A program made the translations under genes and the position numbers. 64,000 nucleotides of DNA from an uncultured Spirochaetota bacterium. Its GTDB lineage: Bacteria > Spirochaetota > Spirochaetia > JAFGXN01. Positions 5,301 through 64,000 of the stretch are shown piece after piece. The DNA lies in the NCBI GenBank assembly GCA_944388995.1, contig CALXKN010000008.1:17160-81159 (forward strand), in the 5' to 3' direction. Numbering within the stretch: position 1 is the stretch's first letter; each line of letters starts with the position of its first letter. The notes below the pieces were generated by a model, which worked only from the letters and a program-made list of their open reading frames with translations, was not told the origin of the DNA and did no database searches.

Positions 5301-6020
5301 ATGGGCGAATTGTACATGGTGGCCACACCGATCGGAAATCTCGGTGACATTACGCTGCGCGCGCTTGAAACGCTGAAATCGGTCGATTTGATCGCGTGCG
5401 AAGACACCCGCCGCACGCTGCAGCTTTTAAACCGTTTTTCGATTGCCAAAAAACTGATCAGCTGCCGGGCTCAGAACGAAGCGGCCGCCGCGCAAACCGT
5501 CTGCCGCGCCCTGGAAGCGGGGCAGTCGGTGGCCTACTGCAGCGATGCGGGAACTCCCGGCGTCAGCGACCCCGGAGCGCGTCTGGCGCAGACCGTCCGC
5601 CGGAACGGTTTCCGCGTCGTACCGATTCCGGGAGCGTCGGCAGTTACTGCGTTAATCAGCGTCTCTGCAACGGAAAGTAAAGGCTTTCGATTTGAAGGCT
5701 TTCTCAGTCCGAAAGAAGGCCGCCGTAAACGACGTCTCGAAGAGCTGATGAACGGCGACGTTCCGTTTATTCTGTACGAATCTCCGTTCCGCATTATTAA
5801 ACTTTTGCACAACATAGCCGATACAGACAGTGAACGGCTTATTACCGTCGGCCGCGAACTGACGAAACAGCATGAAGAAATCGCCGAAGGAACGGCCGCT
5901 TCGATTCTGAATTTATTTGAATCGAGAAATATGATCAAAGGCGAGTGGGTTTTACTGATAAACGGAAAAAAAGAGTTAAAGTCGGAAATCAAAAAAACCG
6001 ATAATAAAAAAGAGAGGTAA
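5301..6020 (+). CDS. rsmI: 16S rRNA (cytidine1402-2'-O)-methyltransferase
   Basis: Tetrapyrrole-methylase fold with RsmI-type N-terminus (LYMVATPIGNLGDITLRALETLKSVDLIACEDTRRT) and typical length. Confidence 0.9.
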   Translation: MGELYMVATPIGNLGDITLRALETLKSVDLIACEDTRRTLQLLNRFSIAKKLISCRAQNEAAAAQTVCRALEAGQSVAYCSDAGTPGVSDPGARLAQTVRRNGFRVVPIPGASAVTALISVSATESKGFRFEGFLSPKEGRRKRRLEELMNGDVPFILYESPFRIIKLLHNIADTDSERLITVGRELTKQHEEIAEGTAASILNLFESRNMIKGEWVLLINGKKELKSEIKKTDNKKER

Positions 6021-6022
6021 TC

Positions 6023-6304
6023 ATGTTGGGAAAAATCAACGGAATCAATCCAATTTCTAATACGACTCGAATCGAAGAAACGGTAAAAACGAAATCGGTT
6101 GCGGGATCCGATTCTATTTCGATTTCTTCCGATGCCGAAAAAATGAGCCGCCTTCACGCCCTGTGCGAAAAAGTAGCTCAAACTCCCGATATCCGCCAGG
6201 ACAAAATCGACGAGGTGATGAATCAAATGAAAAATCCGGACTTCATCAACGACAAGGTTTTATCCGTTGTTGCGGATAAGTTAATGGAGATTTTCAAAAT
6301 CTGA
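6023..6304 (+). CDS. flgM: Anti-sigma-28 factor FlgM-like protein
   Basis: 93 aa. The C-terminal region (IRQDKIDEVMNQMKNPDFINDKVLSVVADKLMEIF) matches the FlgM sigma-28-binding helix pattern. A rho-independent terminator follows. Confidence 0.5.
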   Translation: MLGKINGINPISNTTRIEETVKTKSVAGSDSISISSDAEKMSRLHALCEKVAQTPDIRQDKIDEVMNQMKNPDFINDKVLSVVADKLMEIFKI

Positions 6305-6330
6305 AAACCGGCTTTTGCCGGTTTTTTTTT
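6304..6330 (+). terminator. Rho-independent terminator after flgM
   Basis: ccggc-tttt-gccgg hairpin followed by a T9 run. Confidence 0.65.
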
Positions 6331-6355
6331 ATCTCCGGCGCGGTGAAAGAAAGGG

Positions 6356-6384
6356 TTGAAAAAACGAATTTTTCCGTCTATAAT
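6356..6384 (+). promoter_or_regulatory. Sigma70-like promoter (TTGAAA-17nt-TATAAT) for the nif3-like gene, with the -10 box 5 nt from the ATG (leaderless candidate)
   Basis: ttgaaaaaacgaatttttccgtctataatgcgttATG. Confidence 0.5.
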
Positions 6385-6389
6385 GCGTT

Positions 6390-7145
6390 ATGAAGTTGAA
6401 AGAGCTTTGCGCCTATTACGAATCGCTGCTGCGGATTTCCGAAACCGACGACATCAGCCTGAACGGACTTCAGGTCGGCGACGACGAGGCGGAAATCAAA
6501 ACCGTCGCGTTTGCCGTTGACGCGGCGAAGGAAACCATCGGAAAAGCGGCCGATGCGGGCGCCGATTTGCTCTTTGTTCATCACGGTCTGTTTTGGGGGA
6601 AGCCGTACCCGCTGACCGGCTCCGTTTACAGACGTTTTGATTTGCTTTTCCGGCGGCCGCTGGCGTTGTTTGCCGTTCATCTTCCGCTGGATCTGCACCC
6701 GACGCTCGGCAACAACGCCCGGCTGGCGCAGACGCTCGGCCTGCGGAATCTCCGCCCGTTCGGCGAATACCGCGGCGTTAAAATCGGTTTCAAAGGGGAG
6801 TGGAGCCAACCGCTTTCAGTTGACGACGTCCTCGGCCGTTTGGGGCTGACCCGCGGCGACTGCCTGAAAGTGTACGGCTTCGGCAAAAAAGAAGTTCGGA
6901 ACGCCGCCGTCATTTCGGGCGGAGCGGTCGACGAACTCTCCCAAGCGGTCGCCGAAAACCTCGATTTGTACATCACGGGCGACGCCGGACACGAGATTTA
7001 CCACTTCTGCAAAGAATCGCATATCAATATGCTGAGTATCGGTCACTACGCAAGCGAAACTTACGGCGTGAAAGCCGTCGCCGCCCAAACGGAAAAAGAC
7101 TGCGGTTTGAAAACGCTGTTTATCGATTGTCCGACCGGACTGTAG
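6390..7145 (+). CDS. Nif3-family dinuclear metal-centre protein (YqfO/YbgI, GTP cyclohydrolase 1 type 2 homologue)
   Basis: NIF3 signatures (LLFVHHGLFWG, ITGDAGHEIYHF). Confidence 0.85.
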   Translation: MKLKELCAYYESLLRISETDDISLNGLQVGDDEAEIKTVAFAVDAAKETIGKAADAGADLLFVHHGLFWGKPYPLTGSVYRRFDLLFRRPLALFAVHLPLDLHPTLGNNARLAQTLGLRNLRPFGEYRGVKIGFKGEWSQPLSVDDVLGRLGLTRGDCLKVYGFGKKEVRNAAVISGGAVDELSQAVAENLDLYITGDAGHEIYHFCKESHINMLSIGHYASETYGVKAVAAQTEKDCGLKTLFIDCPTGL

Positions 7146-51177: not shown

Positions 51178-51333
51178 CAGATAACCGGGTTATATCCGAA
51201 AAAAGAGAAAAAAACGGACGAAATATGAACGTCCGCTTTTTTTATATTGACAGAAAAATGAACATAAATTATATTTGTAGTGAGTGTATCACTCATTTTA
51301 AAACATTTTTTATGAGAGGAAGAGGTGGAGTTT

Positions 51334-53007
51334 ATGGGAAGTTTTTCTGTTCGGAAACGGAAACAGTTCGTTTGTTTTTCTGTATTAAAAGCGTTGACAG
51401 CAGCAGCCGTCTTAACGGTCATGTCGTGCGGCGGAGCCGTAGCTGTCGAAAATGTCAAAGTCACGCCGACGGCACTGTCGCTGGGCATCGGCGAAACGGC
51501 GGTTTTAAAAGCGGAAGTGGAACCGGCAGACGCCTCCGTGAACGCGGTGCTTTGGAGCGTTACGCAAGGAACGGCCGTCACGGTGGACGGATACGGCAAG
51601 GTCACGGCAATGACAGCCGGTACGGCAACCGTCACAGCGGAAACGGTCGACGGCGGTAAAACGGCTTCGTGTACGGTGACGGTCGGCAGTATCAGCGACG
51701 GAACAGGCGGAACAGACGGAACAGGAGAAACAGGCGGAACGGTGGCCGTTGAATCCGTTACGCTTGACCGTTCGTCGGTGACGCTGGGAGTCGGCAACTC
51801 GGTCACGCTGCAGGCAACGGTCGAACCGGCGGAAGCAGCCGCCACGGTGGTCTGGAGTCTGGCTTCCGGTGACGGCATTGTGACGGTCGACCAGAAAGGA
51901 CGTATTACGGCAAAAGCGATCGGTGCGGCAACTGTGGCTGTCGAAGCCGGCGGTGAAACGGCCACCTGTCTGGTTACGGTCATTCGGGAAGGTGTCATTG
52001 CCGATTTGGCTTTTATTGACGCGGTTGAAAGAGATATGCAATCAACTTGGGGCCTTAACGACGGTTGGGTTAAAGAAATTGACGGAACCGTACGGATGAA
52101 TTGGCGAAATATGAAAATCGTTAAAGAGGTTACAGAATTGTACTTGAGTAATGAAAATCTTTCTTCTTTGGACGGAATCGAATATTTTACCGGTTTGGAA
52201 TTGTTATCCTGCAGCAATAACCGGCTGACAGCATTGGATGTCGGAAATTTGCACAATTTAAAAACATTGTATTGCGGTAACAATCAGATAGAAACAGGGA
52301 AGCTGATTTTACCGCCGCAGCTTACCTATTTGAGCTGCTCTGATAACCGGTTGGAACAACTGGATGAAACGGTATTACCGGCCGGTCTGACGGAATTGTA
52401 TTGCCAAAATAATCCGCTGACAAAATTGGAAGTGGGAACGCTTACGAAACTGACAAAATTGGACTGTGCCGGAGGACAATTAACACGATTATCGGTAAAC
52501 GGATTAACCGAATTGACCTATCTGGCCTGCGGTTTTAACAATCTTTCTCATCTGGATATAGCAATGGGTAGAGAAGAAATCAATTCAAATCTGGAAACAT
52601 TGTACTGTCAGTATAATAATTTGGCTTATATAAACGTATATGAAATAAAGACATTGAAAGTTCTTGTCTGTGACAATAATAAAATCAGCAGTTTGAACCT
52701 ACCGTACTCGACTTCCACAGAGCAAAGTCCGTTGTACTATCTGACATGTTCCGGAAATAATATAAGCCGGCTGGATGTGGCAAAGTACATAAAGCTCAAC
52801 GCTCTGGATTGCGAAAAAAATGAAATAACCGAATTAAATATTACTAAGCTGACCGGTTTAACATCAACATCTTTTTTCCGCTGCGGAGGGCAGAGAAATG
52901 AAAGCAATCAAATGGTTTTACATCTGACAAGTGATCAGAATACTTTATGGACAAAGAATTGGAAAAAATATAACAACGGTGTCGAAACCCGAATCGCAGA
53001 GCCGTAA
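51334..53007 (+). CDS. Surface lipoprotein with two Big_2 (bacterial Ig-like) domains followed by leucine-rich repeats
   Basis: Lipobox VMSCGG. Two Big_2 units (VTPTALSLGIGETAVLKAEVEPADASVNAVLWSV..GKVTAMTAGTATVTA). Ten or more LRRs (LxxLxCxNNxLTxLDV). Confidence 0.8.
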   Translation: MGSFSVRKRKQFVCFSVLKALTAAAVLTVMSCGGAVAVENVKVTPTALSLGIGETAVLKAEVEPADASVNAVLWSVTQGTAVTVDGYGKVTAMTAGTATVTAETVDGGKTASCTVTVGSISDGTGGTDGTGETGGTVAVESVTLDRSSVTLGVGNSVTLQATVEPAEAAATVVWSLASGDGIVTVDQKGRITAKAIGAATVAVEAGGETATCLVTVIREGVIADLAFIDAVERDMQSTWGLNDGWVKEIDGTVRMNWRNMKIVKEVTELYLSNENLSSLDGIEYFTGLELLSCSNNRLTALDVGNLHNLKTLYCGNNQIETGKLILPPQLTYLSCSDNRLEQLDETVLPAGLTELYCQNNPLTKLEVGTLTKLTKLDCAGGQLTRLSVNGLTELTYLACGFNNLSHLDIAMGREEINSNLETLYCQYNNLAYINVYEIKTLKVLVCDNNKISSLNLPYSTSTEQSPLYYLTCSGNNISRLDVAKYIKLNALDCEKNEITELNITKLTGLTSTSFFRCGGQRNESNQMVLHLTSDQNTLWTKNWKKYNNGVETRIAEP

Positions 53008-55616: not shown

Positions 55617-55922
55617 TTGGAGCGATCGGGTATGAGCTGTAATCTTCCTGAAAGCGTGGTTTTCGATATTGAACGATTCGCAAAGAAAAACAAGATTAAA
55701 AAGGTCGTTCTGTTTGGCTCCCGCGCGAGGGGCAATCATTCGGAACGAAGCGACATTGATTTGGCGGTCAGCGGTGGAAACGCGGCGGATTTTTATTACG
55801 ACGTCAATGAAGAAGCGCGGACTCTTTTAATTTTTGATGTGGTCAATCTGGACGGACCGGTCAGCGGCGAACTGCGCGCCGAAATAGAAAAGGACGGAGT
55901 TTTACTCTATGAAGAAATTTGA
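55617..55922 (+). CDS. Minimal nucleotidyltransferase (MNT), MntA-like antitoxin of a type VII TA pair
   Basis: GS-x9-DxD nucleotidyltransferase motif (LFGSRARGNHSERSDIDLAV). Overlaps the downstream HEPN gene by 14 nt. Confidence 0.8.
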   Translation: MERSGMSCNLPESVVFDIERFAKKNKIKKVVLFGSRARGNHSERSDIDLAVSGGNAADFYYDVNEEARTLLIFDVVNLDGPVSGELRAEIEKDGVLLYEEI

Positions 55923-56304
55923 CAATTTTTGCAAAGCGCTTTCGAATTTGCGGGAAGGATTGCAGCTTGAAGAACCGTATTCTGTCGTCGAACGGACGGG
56001 CATCATCGGGCTGTTTGAAATTTGCTTTGAGCAGGCATGGAAGCTGATGAAAGCGGTTTTGGAAGAGCACGGCAGGACAATCGACCGCGTCGGTTCCCCG
56101 AAAGTTGTCATTCAGCTTGCATATCAGAGCGGGATGATTGACGACAGCGAAAAATGGCTTTCCCTGCTCAGAGATCGAAATATCCTTGCTCACACCTACA
56201 GCGACGAAGATTCGCTTGCCGTGATTCGAACGTTAAAGACGGACTACGAGCCCTTGTTCGCCACCCTCAAAGAAGAGATTGAAACGCGCCGGCTTTCGGC
56301 GTAA
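55909..56304 (+). CDS. HEPN-domain protein, HepT-like toxin
   Basis: HEPN Rx4-6H motif RNILAH in the C-terminal helix. Size and pairing are typical of HepT/MntA pairs. Confidence 0.75.
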   Translation: MKKFDNFCKALSNLREGLQLEEPYSVVERTGIIGLFEICFEQAWKLMKAVLEEHGRTIDRVGSPKVVIQLAYQSGMIDDSEKWLSLLRDRNILAHTYSDEDSLAVIRTLKTDYEPLFATLKEEIETRRLSA

Positions 56305-56655: not shown

Positions 56656-59541
56656 TCAGCAGAAATGCGCCATATCGCGCGGATAATACTTGCAGTCGTG
56701 CAGTTCCGTGTCGTCAAGCCCCAGCGCCTTTACCAGGGCAGCAGACGCTATGCACCAGTACCCGCGGTACTGGTTCTTTTTCAAGTCAAATTTTGTTATA
56801 AGCCCATCAGTCTTCGTGTGAATCCACTGTCTTTTAAGATACCGTTTTAACCGCTCAACAGCCGCCGCTTTATTCTCTTTTGAAAGCAGTACCACCTCAT
56901 ATACCGCATTGGAATATTTCGGACAGCAGAGCTTTTCCGTGCGTATCTGCCAGGATGAGTCCAGCGTCTGCATAAGGAAATCCAGATAAAAATCCCGCTG
57001 TTCCGATTTTTGTAACAATTTTCGATAGTCATCCAGAAATTCAGTCCTGTTAAAAAGCATAATCAAGTACAGAACAGTTTCCATATCTTCATAATTATCA
57101 TTGCCGTCCTGTGCGTCTATCAAATGACGCAAAATCAGGTCTACTTCGGGAAGCAGCTCATGCATATCTAGCCCTAAGGAATATCCTGTATAAAATTTGT
57201 AAAATGCATAAGTATATATTTGATATTTAAACGCTCTTATGTCCGATTCTGCCTGATGTTCATCAGTCTCAATATTATGATGATGATACGTTTGCAGTAT
57301 TTCTTTCAGCTTTTGGGAATCTTTCTTGAATCTTTCGTCAAAATATTCCTGGGGTTTGACTTTATCCCTCATCATTCTTACCCGGGGCGGAAGTTTTTCC
57401 CGCTCCTCCTCCGTAAGAAATTGCGACAGTTCAACTAAAAAGGGCTCTATAAACTCCGACATGAGTTTCGCTTTATTCCCGGCTGAGTGATCATAAGGTA
57501 TTTCAATTGCCGATGTCCGCCGTTTCTCATCCTTCCACAAGCGTCCTATTTTAATAAATGAACCGCCTTTCTCAAATATGTACAACGATATAATCAGTGT
57601 GCAGTCTTCATACTCACATTCTATATAATCTTGCTCCCCCAAGCAGTAATCTCTGTAGGTAAGATTCCTCAAAGTGGTTATTATCCAGGGTATCCACTCT
57701 TTTTTGATGACAACACTATCCCATGACTGCCATGACCCGGTACCGAAACGGCTGCCGGTTCTGGTGTTGATTCGTAGTTCGCCTTTGGGACTCCAGGGCG
57801 TGGGAAGTTTTTTCCGTTCTTCTTCAGGAAGAAATTGTGACAAGGCCACTAAGAAGGGTTCTATAAATTCCGACATGATTTTCAAGTCGTTGTCCGATTC
57901 TTCAAAATTAAATTCGAAACGGGTATAACGCCACTTTGATGTCAGGGTATAACTCTGCTCATTTTTTGCATGCCAAGGAAAATAAGGTATTTCAAGTGCC
58001 GGCGATATCTTCTTTTCATCCTTCCACATGGGAAATATTTTTATATAGGAATACCCATCCCCTATAGGACAGATACTTAATGTTAATTGGCACGTTCCCC
58101 ATTTATTTATGATGCTTTCAACTCCTGTTTGATAATTATCAACACTAAGATTTCTCAATGTGCTTATTATCCAGGGTATCCGGTTTTTTTGTATAACAAT
58201 ACTTTTCTGCTGCCCGCCGCCGAATGTACCGGTTCTTTTTCCGTTAATCCGTAATTCATCGTTATCTAATTCCTCGAAGCTGTATTCAAAATCGGCATTC
58301 AGAGTTTTTTTGCTTTGATATTTTGTTATCTTCTCTATTTTGGCTACTATCGATTCGTCGTCCGACTTATCGGTTTCGCCTGCATACCAATCTTTGCCTT
58401 CGAGCCATACCCCGAACCAGAAAGGAAGATCCCCCCAAGGTCTTTGACAGAGTTCTTTCTTTTCGTTGACACTCCAGGGGGGCGACAGTTTACCCCTTTC
58501 TTCTTCCGTGAGAAACTGCGACAATGCAACCAGAAACGGCTCTATAAATTCCGACATTAATTTTGTTTCTTTCCGGGATACATAGGGTATTTCAATATTC
58601 CATGAACTCTTATTTTCATTTTTCCAGACAGGATAAATTTTGATATAGGAATAATCAAAGGGTACTACATTTATAATAAAACTTAAATTACAGTAACCGT
58701 ATTCATATACGAGAGTTTGCGGGGTGTTATAATCGTCGATAGTGGCATTTCTTAGTGTGGTAATGATCAAAGGTATCCACGCTTTTTTTATGATAATACT
58801 TTCCCATTGTCCCCTGCCGAATGAATCTGTTCGCTTTGCATTGATTTCCAACTCGTCATCATTTAATTCTTCATTGTCAGCTTTTTCCTCAAAATAAAAT
58901 TCGAAATGAACATTCCCGCCCTTACTGATCAGGTATTCTTTTTCTGCCAGTCCGTATTGTGTTATACCGGTCATTGCTTTGAAAAAATTGAGGGAACCGC
59001 TTTCCTTATCGGCAAAAATGATGTTCTGTTTTTTGTTTTCCCTCCAGGGAGGCGGAAGTTGTGTTCTTTCTTCTTCGGTAAGGAATTGTGCCAATTCAAC
59101 CAAAACAGGTTCGATAAATTCCGCCATTAACCTGCTTTTATCCCAGGGTAGATATGGTATTTCAATAAACGGTGTCGTTTTTTCCTTCGGTTCCTTCCAT
59201 ATGGGCATTATTTGAAGGGTCGCATAATCTTTGGCAGATGGTAAAAACTCCAGATTGACTTGACATTCTTCATATTCGTGAACGATATGTCTGTTCCAAA
59301 TCCCTTCCGGAAAGTTGATGTCGTAATCCTCAAAAGGAAGGGTTCTCAGTGTGGTGATAATCCGGGAAATCCACGCTTTTTTTATGACGATACAGTAATA
59401 CAAAGGCATACGTTCCGCTTCATCCAACAATGGAAAGGTTATTTTTTCGAAAATCCGTATTTCGTCGTTGTCCGATTCCTCAAAATGAAATTCAAAGGTA
59501 TCGGATATTTCGGCATCTCCCCTTCTGCCTGTAATGAACAT
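56656..59541 (-). CDS. Large modular protein with four rearranged ~170-200-aa tandem repeats plus a C-terminal domain paralogous to ORF 59781..60401
   Basis: Repeats fall at roughly aa 16-212, 213-417, 418-541 and 542-~740, with shared motifs FEFxFEESDNDELRI..KRTxxFGxGQWxSIxIKKxWIPxIITTLRN..DY, ..YIKIxPxWKxExK..EIPY.. and KLMSEFIEPFLVxLSQFLTEEERxKLPPPW. The C-terminal ~200 aa is about 70% identical to the stand-alone ORF upstream. Confidence 0.7.
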   Translation of the reverse strand: MFITGRRGDAEISDTFEFHFEESDNDEIRIFEKITFPLLDEAERMPLYYCIVIKKAWISRIITTLRTLPFEDYDINFPEGIWNRHIVHEYEECQVNLEFLPSAKDYATLQIMPIWKEPKEKTTPFIEIPYLPWDKSRLMAEFIEPVLVELAQFLTEEERTQLPPPWRENKKQNIIFADKESGSLNFFKAMTGITQYGLAEKEYLISKGGNVHFEFYFEEKADNEELNDDELEINAKRTDSFGRGQWESIIIKKAWIPLIITTLRNATIDDYNTPQTLVYEYGYCNLSFIINVVPFDYSYIKIYPVWKNENKSSWNIEIPYVSRKETKLMSEFIEPFLVALSQFLTEEERGKLSPPWSVNEKKELCQRPWGDLPFWFGVWLEGKDWYAGETDKSDDESIVAKIEKITKYQSKKTLNADFEYSFEELDNDELRINGKRTGTFGGGQQKSIVIQKNRIPWIISTLRNLSVDNYQTGVESIINKWGTCQLTLSICPIGDGYSYIKIFPMWKDEKKISPALEIPYFPWHAKNEQSYTLTSKWRYTRFEFNFEESDNDLKIMSEFIEPFLVALSQFLPEEERKKLPTPWSPKGELRINTRTGSRFGTGSWQSWDSVVIKKEWIPWIITTLRNLTYRDYCLGEQDYIECEYEDCTLIISLYIFEKGGSFIKIGRLWKDEKRRTSAIEIPYDHSAGNKAKLMSEFIEPFLVELSQFLTEEEREKLPPRVRMMRDKVKPQEYFDERFKKDSQKLKEILQTYHHHNIETDEHQAESDIRAFKYQIYTYAFYKFYTGYSLGLDMHELLPEVDLILRHLIDAQDGNDNYEDMETVLYLIMLFNRTEFLDDYRKLLQKSEQRDFYLDFLMQTLDSSWQIRTEKLCCPKYSNAVYEVVLLSKENKAAAVERLKRYLKRQWIHTKTDGLITKFDLKKNQYRGYWCIASAALVKALGLDDTELHDCKYYPRDMAHFC

Positions 59542-59780: not shown

Positions 59781-60401
59781 CTAACAGAAATGGGTCATAT
59801 CGTAGGGATAGTATTTACAGTCTTTCAGTTCCGTATCGTCAAGTTTGAGGGCTTTTACCAAAGCGGCGGCGGCGATGCACCAATACCCCCGGTACCACCC
59901 TATTTTCAGATCCCGGTTGGTTATAACACCTTCGGTTAATGACATAAACCACTGCCTTTTAAGATACCTCTTTAACCGCTGGACGGCTTCCGCCTTGTTT
60001 TCTTTTGACAGCATTACCACCTCGTATACCGAATTGGTCTCTTTGGGGCAACGAAGTTTTTCCGTACTTATCTGCCATGTGGAGTCTACTATCTGTACAA
60101 GATAATCCAGGTAAAAATCCCGCATTTTCGATTTTTGTAATAACTCCTTATATTCATCCAGAAATTCTGTCCGGTTAAAAAGAATGATTAAGTATATAAT
60201 CATTTCCATATCATCATAACCTCTGTCCCTTTCTCTCGTTGTATCAATCAAATTTCTTATGATAAGGTCTACTTCGGGAAGCAGCTCATTCATACCAAGC
60301 CCCAGGGAATAGCCTGCATAAAATTTACAAGCTGCTTCCATATATATGTGATATTTAAACGACCATACATTATATTTTTCCGGATGGCTTATTCTCTTCA
60401 T
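59781..60401 (-). CDS. Stand-alone paralogue of the C-terminal domain of the 961-aa protein (unknown function)
   Basis: FKYHIYMEAACKFYAGYSLGLGMNELLPEVDLIIRNLID...YRGYWCIAAAALVKALKLDDTELKDCKYYPYDMTHFC aligns with FKYQIYTYAFYKFYTGYSLGLDMHELLPEVDLILRHLID...CKYYPRDMAHFC. Confidence 0.65.
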   Translation of the reverse strand: MKRISHPEKYNVWSFKYHIYMEAACKFYAGYSLGLGMNELLPEVDLIIRNLIDTTRERDRGYDDMEMIIYLIILFNRTEFLDEYKELLQKSKMRDFYLDYLVQIVDSTWQISTEKLRCPKETNSVYEVVMLSKENKAEAVQRLKRYLKRQWFMSLTEGVITNRDLKIGWYRGYWCIAAAALVKALKLDDTELKDCKYYPYDMTHFC

Positions 60402-60642
60402 ATTTACTCATCCGTTCAGCAAGATCAGACGCATCCTTATTATATCTTTCCCTAAAATATTCTTCTGTTTTTATGGTGTCTCTCATCTGTTATTCCTTGT
60501 GTATTTTGTAAATTTTTGGTTTATTCTCGTTATACATAACATTGCCATTTTCATCAAGTTGGTAATATGTTACTTTTCCTCCCTTCGGAACGCCTGCGGC
60601 GTGGCTACAATCCTTTGTGCGAGAAGATTTTTATCAATGGTG

Positions 60643-60700
60643 TCCGTACACACCCATTGATGTTGTCAAAGAACTCCTTCTGTACGGAGATAGGGGGAGG
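60643..60700. repeat. 58-bp perfect direct repeat, copy 1 (copy 2 at 63943..64000)
   Basis: tccgtacacacccattgatgttgtcaaagaactccttctgtacggagatagggggagg is identical at both sites. Contains an internal 8-bp inverted repeat (tccgtaca/tgtacgga). Confidence 0.9.
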
Positions 60701-60701
60701 G

Positions 60702-60929
60702 TTATTCAAAAGTTATTACCATATGCGAACCTGCCGTTTTTTCGGTTACTTTCTGTATAATCTCTTTTTTGTCATCTTCAGTTAATGGCTCGTTTTCTGG
60801 AACAAGCCAATTTTTCATTGAACTTTTATAACAGACAAAACCGCCTACTATCATTTCGCCTGCGATTCTCGCAGTTCTGCCATCGAGTTCTACATCTATG
60901 TATGTGTTTGTTCCGGTTATTTTTGTCAT
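60702..60929 (-). CDS. Small hypothetical protein, possibly an immunity protein; a truncated copy of its 5' end lies at 62318..62350
   Basis: 75-aa ORF 8 nt downstream of a DUF600-like gene. Its first ~10 codons recur after the second DUF600-like gene. Confidence 0.45.
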   Translation of the reverse strand: MTKITGTNTYIDVELDGRTARIAGEMIVGGFVCYKSSMKNWLVPENEPLTEDDKKEIIQKVTEKTAGSHMVITFE

Positions 60930-60938
60930 ATATTAATC

Positions 60939-61271
60939 CTATGCATTATCCCATTCGTCTTGAAGAGCCTGATCCCATTCAAAGGTCATATCAAAGTGAC
61001 CGTTCTTTTCAAGGGTGTAAATAGCTTTGTTCCATTGTGCAAAATGTAACTCTTTTGCACTATTATGAAATTTTATTAAATCAATTTTTGTTTCTCGATT
61101 AAGTGCTAAGTTTAAAGCATTTTTCCATTCTCCATTAATCTGATATTTTGCATTCGTACCAATATATTTATCACTACATTCAATATTCAGTTCAATTTTA
61201 TCCCAAGAGGAATCAATACTATCATTCAATTGCGAACCAATATTTTTATATATATCTTCAATATTTTTCAT
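60939..61271 (-). CDS. DUF600/EsaG(YezG)-like immunity protein, paralogue 1
   Basis: N-terminus IYKNIGSQLNDSIDSSWDKIEL resembles EsaG IYNEIANEISSMIPVEWEKVY. Its C-terminal block NGHFDMTFEWDQ is shared with paralogue 2. Sits immediately downstream of the nuclease toxin fragment. Confidence 0.55.
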   Translation of the reverse strand: MKNIEDIYKNIGSQLNDSIDSSWDKIELNIECSDKYIGTNAKYQINGEWKNALNLALNRETKIDLIKFHNSAKELHFAQWNKAIYTLEKNGHFDMTFEWDQALQDEWDNA

Positions 61272-61283
61272 AAATACTCCTAT

Positions 61284-61648
61284 TAATTTAAGAAGAACAA
61301 ATTTTCTGTTTTTTCTATTTTTCCATCCGATGTTTTTATAATGTATGTTACATCAAAATCTGTCGGTCTTAGATTATCAGCATAGTTTATTTTTATATCA
61401 ACTTCAACCTTTTTTCCCTCTGAAAGTGCATCGTTCCATTTTTTTTCCATGGTTTTCCATTCACCATTATTTAGTGTGGCGGTTTGTGGAACATAATTTA
61501 TTTGTTCTCCAGGACCATTGAAAATTCTTGCAATAATATGTCCGCCCTGGTCATCACCTTTAATACCATCTTTTATATCAACTGATTTTCCTTGTTGATA
61601 AACATTTCTGTCTTTTGTTTCAAGTTTTAATTCTCCGCTTACTTTGTT
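61284..61648 (-). pseudogene. Orphan C-terminal fragment of a His-Me-finger (Serratia-type / Endonuclease_NS) non-specific nuclease toxin domain; no start codon
   Basis: A stop-to-stop frame translates to ..KDGIKGDDQGGHIIARIFNGPGEQINYVPQTATLNNGEWKTMEKKWNDALSEGKKVEVDIKINY.., with the His-Me-finger catalytic His in GGH (canonical DRGH) and the metal-ligating Asn in N-Y-VPQ (Serratia nuclease N-I-TPQ..LNQGAW). In-frame tag and taa stops lie upstream and there is no ATG before the motif. Confidence 0.55.
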
Positions 61649-61731
61649 TTACAACTATTTTCTTTTACTTGCAATTGTTCCAAAACGATTAAGTGCAGCA
61701 ACAATATCTTCATAATCAGCATCTATTTCAT

Positions 61732-62262
61732 CTAACTGTCCCAGATTTCCTTAAATTTTAAACCTTTGATACTGTTTTTCTTAACAATATCTATAAACTC
61801 ATCTGTTACAAAATAATCTCGAATAATTAATTGATTTTGTAGTTTAACTTGAAAAAGAGGTGGATAATTGTTTTCCTTAAAATAATATTGCTCAACACCT
61901 AAAATATCATTCTCAAAATACTTATATTTAGTTTTTTTTCGATCTAAGCAGTCCAAAACAGTTAAATTATTTAATAGTACAAAATCGTCATTAAGCGGAA
62001 CAAATCTTATATTTATTTGAGAAATGTCAGAAAGTACTGCCATAAATTTTTTATTTATGAAGAATCCTCTACAATCATAACATTCACAAATATCCCCTGC
62101 AGGATTATTAGAATCTCTATCGTATTCTAATTGAAAATCAGAAGGAATGCTTATTTCTATACCTTTATTAAACTGACGTAAAATTTTTCTATCAGTTTCT
62201 TCGTTTTTTATATAGCATCCTTTGTAATTATCAATATCTGTTTCTAAAATGTATATTTTCAT
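61732..62262 (-). CDS. Hypothetical protein (putative immunity protein) with a G8 tract in its RBS
   Basis: 176-aa ORF in the immunity-gene array. The run ggggggggatatATG sits immediately upstream of its start. Confidence 0.5.
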   Translation of the reverse strand: MKIYILETDIDNYKGCYIKNEETDRKILRQFNKGIEISIPSDFQLEYDRDSNNPAGDICECYDCRGFFINKKFMAVLSDISQINIRFVPLNDDFVLLNNLTVLDCLDRKKTKYKYFENDILGVEQYYFKENNYPPLFQVKLQNQLIIRDYFVTDEFIDIVKKNSIKGLKFKEIWDS

Positions 62263-62266
62263 ATAT

Positions 62267-62274
62267 CCCCCCCC
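62267..62274 (-). repeat. Homopolymeric G8 tract (C8 on the plus strand) 4 nt upstream of the start codon of ORF 61732..62262
   Basis: Plus strand reads atatatccccccccTAATTG; the ATG of the minus-strand gene is at 62260-62262. Confidence 0.9.
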
Positions 62275-62362
62275 TAATTGTGAATTTTTAAGAAACCACT
62301 CAATAATTCCTTTCGGATTGTTTGTATGTGTTTGTTCCGGTTATTTTTGTCATATATTAATC

Positions 62363-62686
62363 CTATGCATTATCCCATTCGTCTTGGAGAGTTTGATCCC
62401 ATTCAAATGTCATATCAAAATGACCATTCCTTTCAAGAGAGTAAACAGCTTTGTTCCATTTATGCTCAGGCGACATAGATTCTTGAAGTTCAAAAACGCT
62501 ATCCATTAAAGTATTTACAGTTAATAAAGGAAACTTTAATTCTTTTTTTTCAAACGATGATAAAGTATATTCTGCCTGAAATGAACACATTTTATTTAGA
62601 CTTGATTCTATTTTTACAGTCACTTTTTCCCATTTACCGGAAATATTATCTTGAACCGCCTTGCCTAATTCTTTATATAAATCCAT
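62363..62686 (-). CDS. DUF600/EsaG(YezG)-like immunity protein, paralogue 2
   Basis: GKWEKVTVKIE ... WNKAVYSLERNGHFDMTFEWDQTLQDEWDNA. Its C-terminal 40 aa is nearly identical to 60939..61271. Confidence 0.55.
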   Translation of the reverse strand: MDLYKELGKAVQDNISGKWEKVTVKIESSLNKMCSFQAEYTLSSFEKKELKFPLLTVNTLMDSVFELQESMSPEHKWNKAVYSLERNGHFDMTFEWDQTLQDEWDNA

Positions 62687-62732: not shown

Positions 62733-63842
62733 TTATTTCTCTTTATTTAAAATAAACAGATACTCAGAGACGTGTATATTACGGTTATTCAAATTTCTGC
62801 TTCCCCGGAATGTATTATAAGTCATTTCAACGGTTTTCAGTTTTCCGTAGTGTTCCAGCATTGTTTTCATTTGCTCAAAAGTAATAAATCCTTCAGAATT
62901 ATAAGAGATAATGACAAACTTTGAATCAATTTTATCTATGATTTTTTCCATGGATTTTAAGGCTGAATAAGGTTTGTTGAATTCCGAGCGGTTCCAATCC
63001 TGAGTTATCCCTGAAACTTTACTGATTTCAGCATCCAGCCTGTTCTTTATGATAAGATTCAGCATAAAATAATTTGAACCATAGGGATGCTGGTTATACG
63101 GGGGATCCAGATAAGTAATATCTATTTTTTTTAATTCCCCGGCAAGTTCCACAGCATCTTTTTTATAGATTTTAACCTTTGAATTGAAATTGCTTAAAAC
63201 CGGCTCTTTCAGTTCTATTTTTCCAAAAATGCGGGTTAAAGCGTTTTTCCCGGCAGCGCCGAAACATCCGATTCCGGTATTTTTGTCCTTGTAAAACCCT
63301 TTGAAAACCCCGCTTGTATTGACATGAACCGAAGCCTCCGTTACGAGCGGCGCTAAAAAAAATTTTTTCATGTCTTCTTCCTGCACCACTTTATCAATCA
63401 GACTGCGGTAAGTGTCGATTAACAGAGCGTTCTCATGGGTATAAAAAACCCTTTCTCCTCTTTGAATATTTCCGTCATCCTGAGGGGCATAATTTTTTGT
63501 GATAATTCTCGGTTCTTTTTTGCTGCGGCACATTTCTTCTATTATTGATTTATATTCCCGCCATTTTTCATGCGGAAAATCTTTTTTGTCAGTCAGATAG
63601 CATTCATTGATGAGGCGGGAATATTCTTCCAGATCATTGGCAATTAAAACACTGCTGTATTTTTTCAGCATCCGGGCAACAATTCCCGAACCGGAGAAAA
63701 TATCCGCACAAACAAGTTTTTCTTTTCCCAATAAACCGGCAATTTTTTTGACTTCTTCTTCTATATTCCTGATAAGCTGCCGTTTGTTCCTGATATAAGT
63801 AATGATCTGTGCAGTAAGATATTCTTTATTTTCTTCTTTCAT
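62733..63842 (-). CDS. DNA N6-adenine methyltransferase (DPPY motif), either orphan or part of an R-M system beyond the window
   Basis: Motif I DIFSGSG and motif IV TYLDPPYNQHPYGSNYF. No restriction endonuclease gene is visible within the window. Confidence 0.7.
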   Translation of the reverse strand: MKEENKEYLTAQIITYIRNKRQLIRNIEEEVKKIAGLLGKEKLVCADIFSGSGIVARMLKKYSSVLIANDLEEYSRLINECYLTDKKDFPHEKWREYKSIIEEMCRSKKEPRIITKNYAPQDDGNIQRGERVFYTHENALLIDTYRSLIDKVVQEEDMKKFFLAPLVTEASVHVNTSGVFKGFYKDKNTGIGCFGAAGKNALTRIFGKIELKEPVLSNFNSKVKIYKKDAVELAGELKKIDITYLDPPYNQHPYGSNYFMLNLIIKNRLDAEISKVSGITQDWNRSEFNKPYSALKSMEKIIDKIDSKFVIISYNSEGFITFEQMKTMLEHYGKLKTVEMTYNTFRGSRNLNNRNIHVSEYLFILNKEK

Positions 63843-63942: not shown

Positions 63943-64000
63943 TCCGTACACACCCATTGATGTTGTCAAAGAACTCCTTCTGTACGGAGATAGGGGGAGG
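63943..64000. repeat. 58-bp perfect direct repeat, copy 2 (cut by the window end)
   Basis: Identical to 60643..60700, about 100 bp upstream of the methyltransferase start. Confidence 0.9.

Follow-up and report, generated by a model that had tools for sequence, protein, structure and literature searches.

What is encoded by a cluster of small genes and gene remnants on the minus strand of a spirochaete contig, and how did such an assortment arise? The stretch analysed here (hereafter the window) comprises 64,000 nucleotides from an uncultured Spirochaetota bacterium (GCA_944388995.1, contig CALXKN010000008.1, positions 17,160 to 81,159). Between its positions 62686 and 60702, the minus strand carries in this order open reading frames (ORFs) of 107 and 176 amino acids (aa), a start-less stretch of 121 codons, and ORFs of 110 and 75 aa. 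Beyond the 75-aa ORF lie a 206-aa ORF (59781-60401) and then a 961-aa ORF (56656-59541) on the same strand. Proteins identical to those of the window are labelled Candidatus Treponema excrementipullorum or Spirochaetia bacterium, and the related genome matches are metagenome-assembled genomes (MAGs) of uncultured Treponema or Spirochaetes. An initial annotation, made by a model from the sequence alone, took the cluster for part of a polymorphic-toxin system, namely a poly-immunity locus that includes an orphan tip of a His-Me nuclease and tandem EsaG/DUF600-like paralogues. This proposal is supported by Pfam matches, by alignment of the catalytic residues, by a full-length relative of the nuclease, and by variability among strains. 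Very probably, the locus is what remains at the downstream end of a polymorphic-toxin island of an uncultured gut Treponema, degenerate and rich in immunity genes.

The five features first recognised were all found at the positions given for them, as judged from the ORF list, from reading of the sequence, and from Pfam. The gap between the nuclease fragment and the second DUF600-like gene had been put at 13 nt and measures 11 nt, and the Imm74 5' stub, two AHH-type 3' ends and the frameshift in a PoNi gene had not been listed. Below, L-numbers denote related contigs, mostly from metagenome assemblies, and P-numbers denote homologous proteins that were compared. The central part of the locus contains the following features.

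62363-62686, minus strand: EsaG/YezG (DUF600, Imm36)-like immunity gene, 107 aa, intact (PF04634).
62324-62353, minus strand: 5' remnant of an Imm74 gene, its first 10 codons (MTKITGTNTY) followed by an apparent recombination junction (sequence reading, repeat D4).
62274-62321, minus strand: 3' remnant of an AHH nuclease toxin gene, its last 15 codons (TIRKELLSGFLKIHN) and stop (L014, P0263).
61732-62262, minus strand: putative Imm11-family immunity gene, 176 aa, of the type cognate to AHH tips (Pfam and transitive homology).
61655-61737, minus strand: second AHH-type toxin 3' remnant, the last 26 codons (LDEIDADYEDIVAALNRFGTIASKRK) and stop (L047).
61283-61648, minus strand: fragment of an EsaD-type Endonuclea_NS_2 tip, here called nucK, codons 94-214, with no start (PF13930 match, EsaD alignment).
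60939-61271, minus strand: EsaG/YezG-like immunity gene, 110 aa, intact (fold match, family profile, synteny).
60702-60929, minus strand: Imm74 (Tci1 family) gene, 75 aa (PF15603).

The nuclease fragment and the immunity genes

The 121-codon fragment matches Endonuclea_NS_2 (PF13930; E 6.8e-25, 88 bits, gathering threshold (GA) 27) over profile positions 22-130 of 132 (61286-61648), and it aligns with the nuclease domain of EsaD/EssD from S. aureus (8GUO_B, E 2e-12). In this alignment, H37 of the fragment (61540-61538) corresponds to the catalytic H528 of EsaD and N60 to the Mg-binding N551, the roles of these EsaD residues being those described earlier (PMC9616950). N51, P54 and Q55 form the conserved N..PQ block. 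The catalytic His and Asn blocks that had been predicted are thus retained. The GGH motif of the fragment had been regarded as a deviation from DRGH; since EsaD itself reads DDGGHLIARMF, GGH is native to this subfamily.

Two EsaG/YezG-like paralogues are present, as had been claimed; one matches the DUF600 profile above GA and the other just under it, and the latter, the 110-aa protein, also has an EsaG-like predicted fold. The 107-aa protein matches PF04634 with 23.4 bits, above GA (21.7). It is 62% identical to the 108-aa product of the gene downstream of a full-length ARC-NS_2 toxin in L049, and its sequence suggests a third specificity type of YezG-like immunity. For the 110-aa protein, PF04634 is matched by 33 of the 35 members of its family (E < 0.01). 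A direct phmmer search of this protein against PDB gave no match; the profile of the 35-member family places EsaG (8GUO_A) and BH3703/DUF600 on top, EsaG at only E 0.034. Foldseek with the AlphaFold (AF2) model (predicted local distance difference test score, pLDDT, 90) returned EsaG (8GUO_A/8GUP_A) as top matches with E 6e-7 and a template modelling (TM) score of 0.65-0.70, and all six PDB fold matches with E < 1e-3 are EsaG or BH3703 DUF600 proteins. The modelled 110-aa protein thus appears to have the EsaG/BH3703 fold. NCBIfam yielded only weak matches, to TIGR01741 (staphylococcal tandem DUF600). The two paralogues are 44% identical (E 5e-28), and their genes have in common a block of 138 nt at 93% identity (repeat D4: 62323-62460 versus 60899-61036). 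The 110-aa protein is the likely cognate partner of the nucK tip, because its gene directly follows the intact 214-aa nuclease gene in L025-L030, always at the distance of 11 nt that is also seen in the window; in L049, the nuclease and its YezG-like gene are 18 nt apart.

The 176-aa protein has 229 homologues among cluster representatives (phmmer), and 37 of its 40 full-length homologues match Imm11 (DUF1629, PF07791; best E 1.4e-18). By this transitive homology it is assigned to Imm11. Its gene is bracketed by remnants of AHH toxin genes. On the upstream side, positions 62326-61736 are 99.5% identical to L014 1302-1891, which comprises the final 53 nt of the gene for an AHH toxin and the Imm11-like gene; the peptide TIRKELLSGFLKIHN matches the C-terminus of P0263, and this stub ends 11 nt upstream of the 176-aa gene. 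On the downstream side, a 62-nt part of the second stub recurs with 100% identity where a toxin ORF of L047 (ARC-...HAHHILF...) ends, and the stop codon of the 176-aa gene comes from the sequence of this remnant. Intact AHH toxins are encoded directly upstream of Imm11-like homologues in L007-L011, L014 and L015. In L015, a 202-aa protein at the same gene position matches Imm11 with 23.2 bits and has no direct BLASTP similarity to the 176-aa protein of the window. As a side observation, clustering at 90% identity puts the 107-aa YezG-like and 176-aa Imm11-like proteins together, although no similarity between them can be detected; the probable reason is a gene call in which the two are fused.

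The 75-aa protein matches Imm74 (PF15603) with E 1.3e-15 and 57.6 bits (GA 27.1). Matches to Imm families, to Endonuclea_NS_2 and to DUF600 have thus come from the profile search that the initial annotation had proposed as a check. Tci1, which confers immunity to the ADP-ribosyl cyclase (ARC) toxin Tac1, belongs to Imm74, and Tci1/Imm74 gives partial rescue from ARC toxicity (PMC12356396). For Tox-ARC, Imm74 had already been designated the primary immunity protein (Zhang et al., 2012; PMC3482391). An Imm74 gene closes each cassette in L001, L007-L011, L014, L015, L025-L027 and L049. Every ARC-containing toxin cassette in the related loci terminates with it, and the window itself has no ARC domain. 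By analogy, Imm74 would confer immunity to the Tox-ARC NADase domain, which is constant, and its gene brackets every cassette on the 3' side. The Imm74 stub at 62324-62353 has an intact counterpart in L027, where the order is the 107-aa gene followed by Imm74.

The source toxin: a constant body with variable tips

In Treponema relatives, the toxins from which such tips derive are arranged as an N-terminal region, a Tox-ARC domain of the NAD(P)+ glycohydrolase (NADase) type, a handle, and a variable nuclease tip. Longer homologues of the nuclease module carry extra N-terminal sequence that is common to AHH-tipped proteins, and this constant region is Tox-ARC. Residues 107-242 of the 529-aa toxin of L015 match the Pantoea structure 9RO8_A with E 3.6e-47 and Tac1 (9OUF_A) with E 9e-44, and the equivalents of E516, W540 and E573 of Tac1 are conserved in the Treponema domain. 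The 445-aa P0262 is a full-length toxin of this kind, composed of a ~105-aa N-terminus, ARC, a linker, and a complete NS_2 domain. A full-length toxin with the same C-terminal domain, for which a search had been suggested, therefore exists in a related contig. In that contig (L049), the order is the P0262 toxin gene, the 108-aa YezG-like gene, and Imm74; in L007-L011, L014 and L015, it is an ARC-AHH toxin, the Imm11-like gene, and Imm74. Among the tips observed are NS_2 ones, in at least two versions that differ in the C-tail, AHH tips of at least two types, and others (P0264; the AHH-type tip of L047).

Two side observations concern this family. ARC domains are ~60-70% identical (E 1e-43 to 1e-47) across Treponema, Pantoea (PAAR), Streptococcus and Listeria (LXG), Zobellia (PAAR-like) and others, and such cross-phylum conservation is unusually high for a toxin domain. 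The ARC toxin P0264 bears a third kind of tip, which has no Pfam match and in which a PD-(D/E)xK-like motif can be seen by eye (LDSYD...GEIISRK).

The same ARC domain and handle are joined to different tips, and the adjacent immunity gene co-varies with the tip. The variable unit of tip and tip-immunity gene is thus flanked by two conserved blocks, the handle and Imm74. The handle spans ~30 aa, and the first 88-111 nt of the standalone 212- and 214-aa nuclease modules are 95-98% identical to cassettes bearing different tips. These modules start exactly at the last ARC strand (MAETVIFER...), at an orphan ATG, and homology between modules and ARC cassettes is absent upstream of the handle. The covariation can be followed within the NS_2 tips. 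The K-tail nuclease (nucK) is followed by the 110-aa gene, and the Q-tail toxin (nucQ, L049) is followed by the 108-aa immunity type. Residues 1-177 of nucQ and nucK are identical and only the last ~37 aa differ; in the YezG-like types, it is the first ~70 residues that differ and the last ~35 that are common. In the EsaD-EsaG complex, beta6-8 of the C-terminal fragment of EsaD contact EsaG (PMC9616950). Because the tails and the N-terminal parts of the immunity proteins co-vary, and because beta6-8 of EsaD touch EsaG, we infer by analogy that discrimination takes place where the nuclease tail meets the variable region of the immunity protein.

The standalone modules also bear on a different explanation, in which the nuclease/immunity pairs are intracellular toxin-antitoxin or anti-phage modules of a defence island that includes the methyltransferase and the HepT/MNT pair described below. 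The modules have their own ATG and AT-rich upstream DNA, those of L026 and L027 lie near holin, endolysin and Mor genes, and a type II methyltransferase and a HepT/MNT pair occur in the same island. However, no PADLOC defence model matches any toxin or immunity protein, the methyltransferase being the only match in the locus. The modules begin exactly at the handle common to full-length ARC toxins, which is the signature of orphan polymorphic-toxin tips, and NS_2/DUF600, AHH/Imm11, ARC/Imm74 and PoNi are established families of interbacterial toxins and immunity proteins. An intracellular role is therefore unlikely.

Delivery route

If the island belongs to a polymorphic-toxin system, the next question is how its toxins would leave the cell. 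Spirochaetes are diderm, and T7SSb, the b type of type VII secretion systems (T7SS), is a monoderm system. A T7SS-like route had been offered as one option in the initial annotation, and an LXG/EsaD-type T7SS or a contact-dependent inhibition (CDI) system, as in Firmicutes, has some points in its favour. The nuclease and its immunity protein are homologous to the T7SSb substrates EsaD and EsaG, the nuclease is 37-39% identical to streptococcal relatives, and ARC domains occur elsewhere on LXG and CdiA proteins. Against it, the Treponema homologues have no LXG, WXG, filamentous-haemagglutinin-type domain or Rhs, and an LXG/WXG100 domain was found in no Treponema homologue or neighbour examined. 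LXG was seen only on ARC or nuclease relatives from Listeria and Streptococcus. The toxin body is instead the Tox-ARC NADase, and the ~105-aa N-terminal region of the Treponema toxins has no Pfam or NCBIfam match. The neighbours of complete cassettes are of another sort, as follows, so that a T7SS- or CDI-type system is very unlikely.

In related contigs, though not in the window, complete ARC-AHH cassettes adjoin genes for eCIS_core/DUF4157, an AAA ATPase and a Phage_base_V spike. As a marker of toxins of extracellular contractile injection systems (eCIS), DUF4157 is highly specific (Geller et al., 2021; PMC8213781), and ARC on VgrG or PAAR is known from type VI secretion systems (T6SS). In P0267, from one contig, a Phage_GPD baseplate-hub domain is represented by its C-terminal end, which a helical linker connects to ARC. 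These eCIS_core, spike and GPD associations are leads as to delivery. Sheath, tube or baseplate genes were found nowhere in the related DNA examined. A metagenome scan with P0267 recovered Phage_GPD hub genes and no sheath or tube genes, and a viral-contig scan with the spike protein of L008 gave nothing useful. The upstream DNA of L016 (Mucispirillum) holds flagellar genes only and no delivery machine, and in the literature no report was found linking Treponema with contractile injection systems.

Some other arrangements were seen beside these genes. The usual GPD proteins of the clade (L032-L041, L045) have a different, beta-rich C-terminal extension and stand beside D5-primase/PIN mobile-element genes. 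In L007-L011, L015 and L050, the ARC toxins have a second polymorphic system beside them, with the order of a 504-1307-aa protein, an eCIS_core/DUF4157 protein of ~234 aa, a protein of 442, 481 or 730 aa, and PoNi. The first 94 aa of the 442-, 481- and 730-aa proteins are common to them. In L008, this second system is preceded by genes for an AAA ATPase, a Phage_base_V spike, DUF2997 and a pentapeptide protein.

Is the nuclease fragment still active?

The window retains the nuclease from codon 94 onward. Its positions 61649-60684 are 96% identical to an intact cassette (L026) from that codon on, and intact 214-aa versions are known in P0008 and P0010. Residue 1 of the fragment corresponds approximately to residue 494 of EsaD, and the N-terminal half-sheet (beta1-3) is gone. 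The complete NS_2 domain in the intact relative P0262 spans profile positions 1-132; what is missing from the fragment is codons 1-93, which include beta1-3 and the 5' handle. It had been described as a start-less nuclease core of ~120 codons, and it does consist of 121 codons with no usable start. Reading of the sequence revealed no in-frame ATG, GTG or TTG ahead of M66, which is the first in-frame start and lies past all catalytic residues; two stops are located directly upstream. In addition, the C-terminal fragment of EsaD alone is inactive (Wang et al., PMC9616950). The 121-codon fragment thus reads as a dead, inert remnant, because its catalytic part is untranslatable and beta1-3 are missing.

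Could it work all the same, through recoding or by forming an active enzyme together with another fragment? Its catalytic His and Asn are intact, the 121 codons contain no internal stop, the fragment is 96-98% identical to intact copies, and separate N- and C-terminal fragments of EsaD reassemble to an active enzyme in vitro (PMC9616950). The lack of any start ahead of the catalytic residues, the two upstream stops, the deletion of the handle and the beta1-3 segment, and the inactivity of the C-terminal fragment of EsaD by itself all argue against this, and the high identity to intact copies fits a recent deletion equally well. We regard a surviving function as highly improbable. A programmed frameshift fusing the 176-aa ORF to the fragment was considered and rejected, since the 83 nt between them are the 3' end of another toxin and contain two stops.

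The island around the locus and its variation among strains

The locus lies in an island of low GC content. The GC content is 0.30 over 60702-62686 versus 0.45 over the first 55 kb of the window, and the contents differ between strains; the low GC content had been noted in the initial annotation. The remainder of the window includes dnaA, dnaN, recF and gyrBA, with a GC-skew minimum at ~35-36 kb. At the edge away from the window end, the island is bounded by a HepT/MNT pair and then by housekeeping genes. Besides the features listed above, the island contains the following.

63943-64000, no strand assigned: second copy of a 58-nt sequence, perfect, cut by the window end (repeat search; the upstream Imm74 copy is visible in L001).
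62733-63842, minus strand: solitary D12-class type II N6-adenine DNA methyltransferase, 369 aa (PF02086, PADLOC).
60643-60700, no strand assigned: 58-nt sequence directly 3' of Imm74 (repeat search).
59781-60486, minus strand: PoNi (DUF1910/DUF1911, Imm-PA2201) immunity gene, frameshifted near 60391 (PoNi_C, tblastn).
56656-59541, minus strand: polyimmunity protein, 961 aa, with four diverged ~190-aa repeats followed by PoNi_N and PoNi_C (Pfam, DNA repeats).

The methyltransferase matches PF02086 (E 9e-18) and the PADLOC model MTase_II (E 4e-118), and no partner restriction enzyme was found in the PADLOC scan. It is identical in L001-L006, sits between two copies of Imm74, and is a passenger gene inside the island. 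Imm74 with the 58-nt sequence makes up direct repeats of ~290 nt, which flank a 3.3-kb segment from the methyltransferase to the 110-aa YezG gene. Recombination between these brackets would delete the segment, and strains without it exist (L025). No significant secondary structure was found in the 58-nt repeat (z = -1).

PoNi genes follow on the other side. The 206-aa ORF keeps PoNi_C (E 6e-20). By tblastn with its 235-aa homologue P0160, residues 1-32 match at 60486-60391 and residues 33-235 match at 60392-59784 in a different frame. PoNi_C is found in both window proteins (72.5 and 64.9 bits), and PoNi_N in the 961-aa protein with 22.7 bits versus GA 22.4. The C-terminal 200 aa of the 961-aa protein are 68% identical to the 206-aa PoNi, and the DNA repeat families D1, D3, D7-D9 and D11 lie in its gene. 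A lone ~190-aa repeat unit is fused in frame to a nuclease C-terminal tail in other strains (L002 666-965; P0080, P0093, P0095). Two further observations concern the surroundings. The HepT-like/MNT toxin-antitoxin pair (55909-56304, plus strand, and the adjacent ~55.6-55.9 kb) is missing from one contig that is otherwise syntenic with the window (L054), and a 560-aa protein with Big_2 and leucine-rich repeats is encoded near the island (51325-53007, plus strand).

The metagenome contig L001, identical to the window where the two overlap, extends the island by ~2 kb past the window end. In the order of transcription, this extension comprises a 212-aa NS_2 module beside a Na/Ala symporter gene, a 142-aa chimera, a 180-aa Imm11-like protein, and Imm74 with the 58 nt. 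The NS_2 module is an intact Q-tail module at L001 5659-6297 (the region 5659-6744 corresponds to ~64.8-65.9 kb in window coordinates). The 142-aa chimera consists of a YezG N-terminus fused to an AHH C-terminus; here, the 108-type immunity gene runs only to codon ~43, and the C-terminal part of an AHH toxin takes the place of the rest. Other strains have different content at the same chromosomal site, such as a chimera of a PoNi repeat and a nuclease tail, or an intact pair of the 214- and 110-aa genes without the methyltransferase. Variants of the site were seen in L001, L002, L025, L027 and L054, and the arrangement of the window recurs in at least five independent metagenome assemblies.

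Metagenome contigs often break within the locus and repeats of 58 to 290 nt are present, as would be expected if the mosaic were an artefact of chimeric joins across repeated Imm74/YezG blocks, but the same order and junctions occur in assemblies made independently, with two assemblers and from two series of samples (L001-L006, L051-L054), and the contigs over each junction reach well out on both sides, which leaves an assembly artefact next to no chance. The large contigs L051-L053 (212, 55 and 61 kb) all end inside the locus. Repeats evidently break short-read assemblies here, so that published MAGs probably under-represent such islands.

Two candidate relationships were rejected. Synteny of L015 with the window through a 604-aa gene does not hold, since that gene encodes DHODH and not the SBP_bac_5 protein of the window. 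Horizontal transfer was suggested by an 87%-identical match in a MAG of Mucispirillum. The contig concerned (L012, CAMEOC010000174.1) is 3.5 kb long, is binned as 'uncultured Mucispirillum sp.', and is 94-96% identical to the nuclease/YezG region of the window; misbinned Treponema DNA is the more likely explanation.

How the locus may have formed and what speaks against it

The handle and Imm74 blocks could support the exchange of cassettes by homologous recombination. Repeated exchange, together with illegitimate deletions, would have left four intact immunity genes (YezG-107, Imm11-176, YezG-110 and Imm74) and the PoNi genes. The same process would have left three toxin 3' stubs, the largest being the 121-codon nuclease fragment, as the debris of displaced or deleted cassettes. 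The intact immunity genes may be co-expressed and may protect the cell against ARC-nuclease (and PoNe-type) toxins of neighbouring Treponema strains. In the manner of EsaG, YezG-like proteins would bind and deform the nuclease, and Imm74 would occlude the active-site cleft of ARC.

Several observations weigh against this picture of a decayed, immunity-bearing island end. The island is not purely 'immunity only', as the strain has an intact 212-aa module with a disrupted cognate immunity gene. The junctions at the three toxin stubs lie outside the conserved blocks, and therefore simple homologous cassette exchange alone does not explain them. Promoter and terminator scans of the locus were at chance level. 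A partner nuclease of the 107-aa type was not found among the related contigs. Two of the immunity assignments fall short in the direct Pfam comparison, the 110-aa protein scoring 20.8 bits against PF04634, just under GA (21.7), and the 176-aa protein 19.8 bits against Imm11, below GA (22.1).

Relation to known systems

The locus is of a recognisable, already catalogued kind and represents no new kind of system. Imm36/DUF600 with Tox-NucA and Imm11 with Tox-AHH have already been recorded in spirochaetes, although extended polyimmunity loci had not been recorded there as of 2012 (Zhang et al., 2012; PMC3482391). The remark that such an arrangement is unusual for a spirochaete was thus overstated. 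From its closest analogue, EsaD/EsaG, it is set apart by EsaG-like proteins that are short, by a nuclease lacking the finger loop, by ARC and nuclease in tandem with their two immunity genes in series, and by a context other than T7SS.

The closest mechanistic analogue is EsaD/EsaG with its tandem esaG arrays (PMC9616950; PMC9484751), together with YeeF/YezG of B. subtilis. The His-Me domain of the Treponema nuclease is homologous to that of EsaD and shares its GGH-I/L-ARxF catalytic strand; the immunity protein has a DUF600 fold and is encoded immediately downstream. The paralogues of esaG recombine through conserved blocks (PMC9484751), and the window likewise has non-identical tandem paralogues with a common block. 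Unlike EsaG (~160 aa), however, the Treponema immunity proteins are ~108 aa long, and the Treponema nuclease has a gap in the alignment at the 5-residue 'finger loop' of EsaD. It stands behind ARC and not behind a T7SS trafficking domain, in a context without LXG or T7SS. Only two paralogues are present in the window, and they are mixed with unrelated immunity families.

For the toxin body, strong ARC homology links the Treponema proteins to Tac1/Tci1, an LXG-ARC system of S. parasanguinis (PMC12356396), and to the PAAR-ARC protein PANA_2924 of Pantoea ananatis (9RO8; PMC12605009). As in Tac1/Tci1, ARC is linked with Imm74 and the residue equivalents named above are kept. In Tac1 and PANA_2924, ARC is the C-terminal warhead, whereas in Treponema it is internal and is followed by a second, nuclease warhead and two serial immunity genes. 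Toxins associated with eCIS (PMC8213781) offer a further parallel in that related ARC-AHH cassettes stand beside eCIS_core, but none of these genes is in the window.

Orphan C-terminal/immunity modules downstream of rhs and cdiA genes form another point of comparison; they are said to have been described by Poole et al. in 2011 and by Koskiniemi et al. in 2014. As in those modules, displaced tips in Treponema keep a short conserved stretch followed by immunity genes, accumulate downstream, and vary among strains. On the other hand, the Treponema toxin body is small (~310-530 aa) and is neither Rhs nor CdiA, the 3' end of the cassette is also conserved (Imm74) so that there are two homology brackets, and the stubs of the window are truncated within variable sequence. 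The locus also resembles the heterogeneous polyimmunity loci (Zhang et al., 2012; PMC3482391) in having at least five closely spaced immunity genes of unrelated families on the same strand, with variation among strains, and a multi-domain immunity protein of 961 aa adjacent to them; the families are Imm36/DUF600, Imm11, Imm74 and PoNi/Imm-PA2201. Such loci are recognised by at least four immunity genes of unrelated families in tandem on one strand, separated by short spacers and variable among strains. Unlike a pure polyimmunity locus, it includes toxin stubs and, outside the window, an intact module, and is thus a hybrid with an orphan-cassette array.

Implications for gut spirochaetes

For annotation, this reading accounts for a run of small 'hypothetical' genes and of pseudogene stubs. 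For the biology of the group, it means that uncultured gut spirochaetes join toxin-immunity arms races with parts that are also those of Firmicutes and Proteobacteria, namely EsaD/EsaG, AHH/Imm11, ARC/Imm74 and PoNe/PoNi. The pair of nucQ and nucK, each with a different EsaG-like protein, is a clean natural specificity switch and can be used to test how discrimination works in the 'toxin-deforming' mode of EsaG-type immunity. The ARC-plus-nuclease tandem, the paired immunity genes, and the handle and Imm74 brackets are likewise testable design features. It is possible, if somewhat doubtful, that gut Treponema carry an undescribed two-warhead polymorphic toxin with two serial immunity genes and two recombination blocks, delivered by a contractile injection system resembling a phage tail, with no part for T7SS or CDI. 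If this is true, spirochaetes would have their first defined interbacterial weapon system, and the window would represent the defensive 'memory' of one strain.

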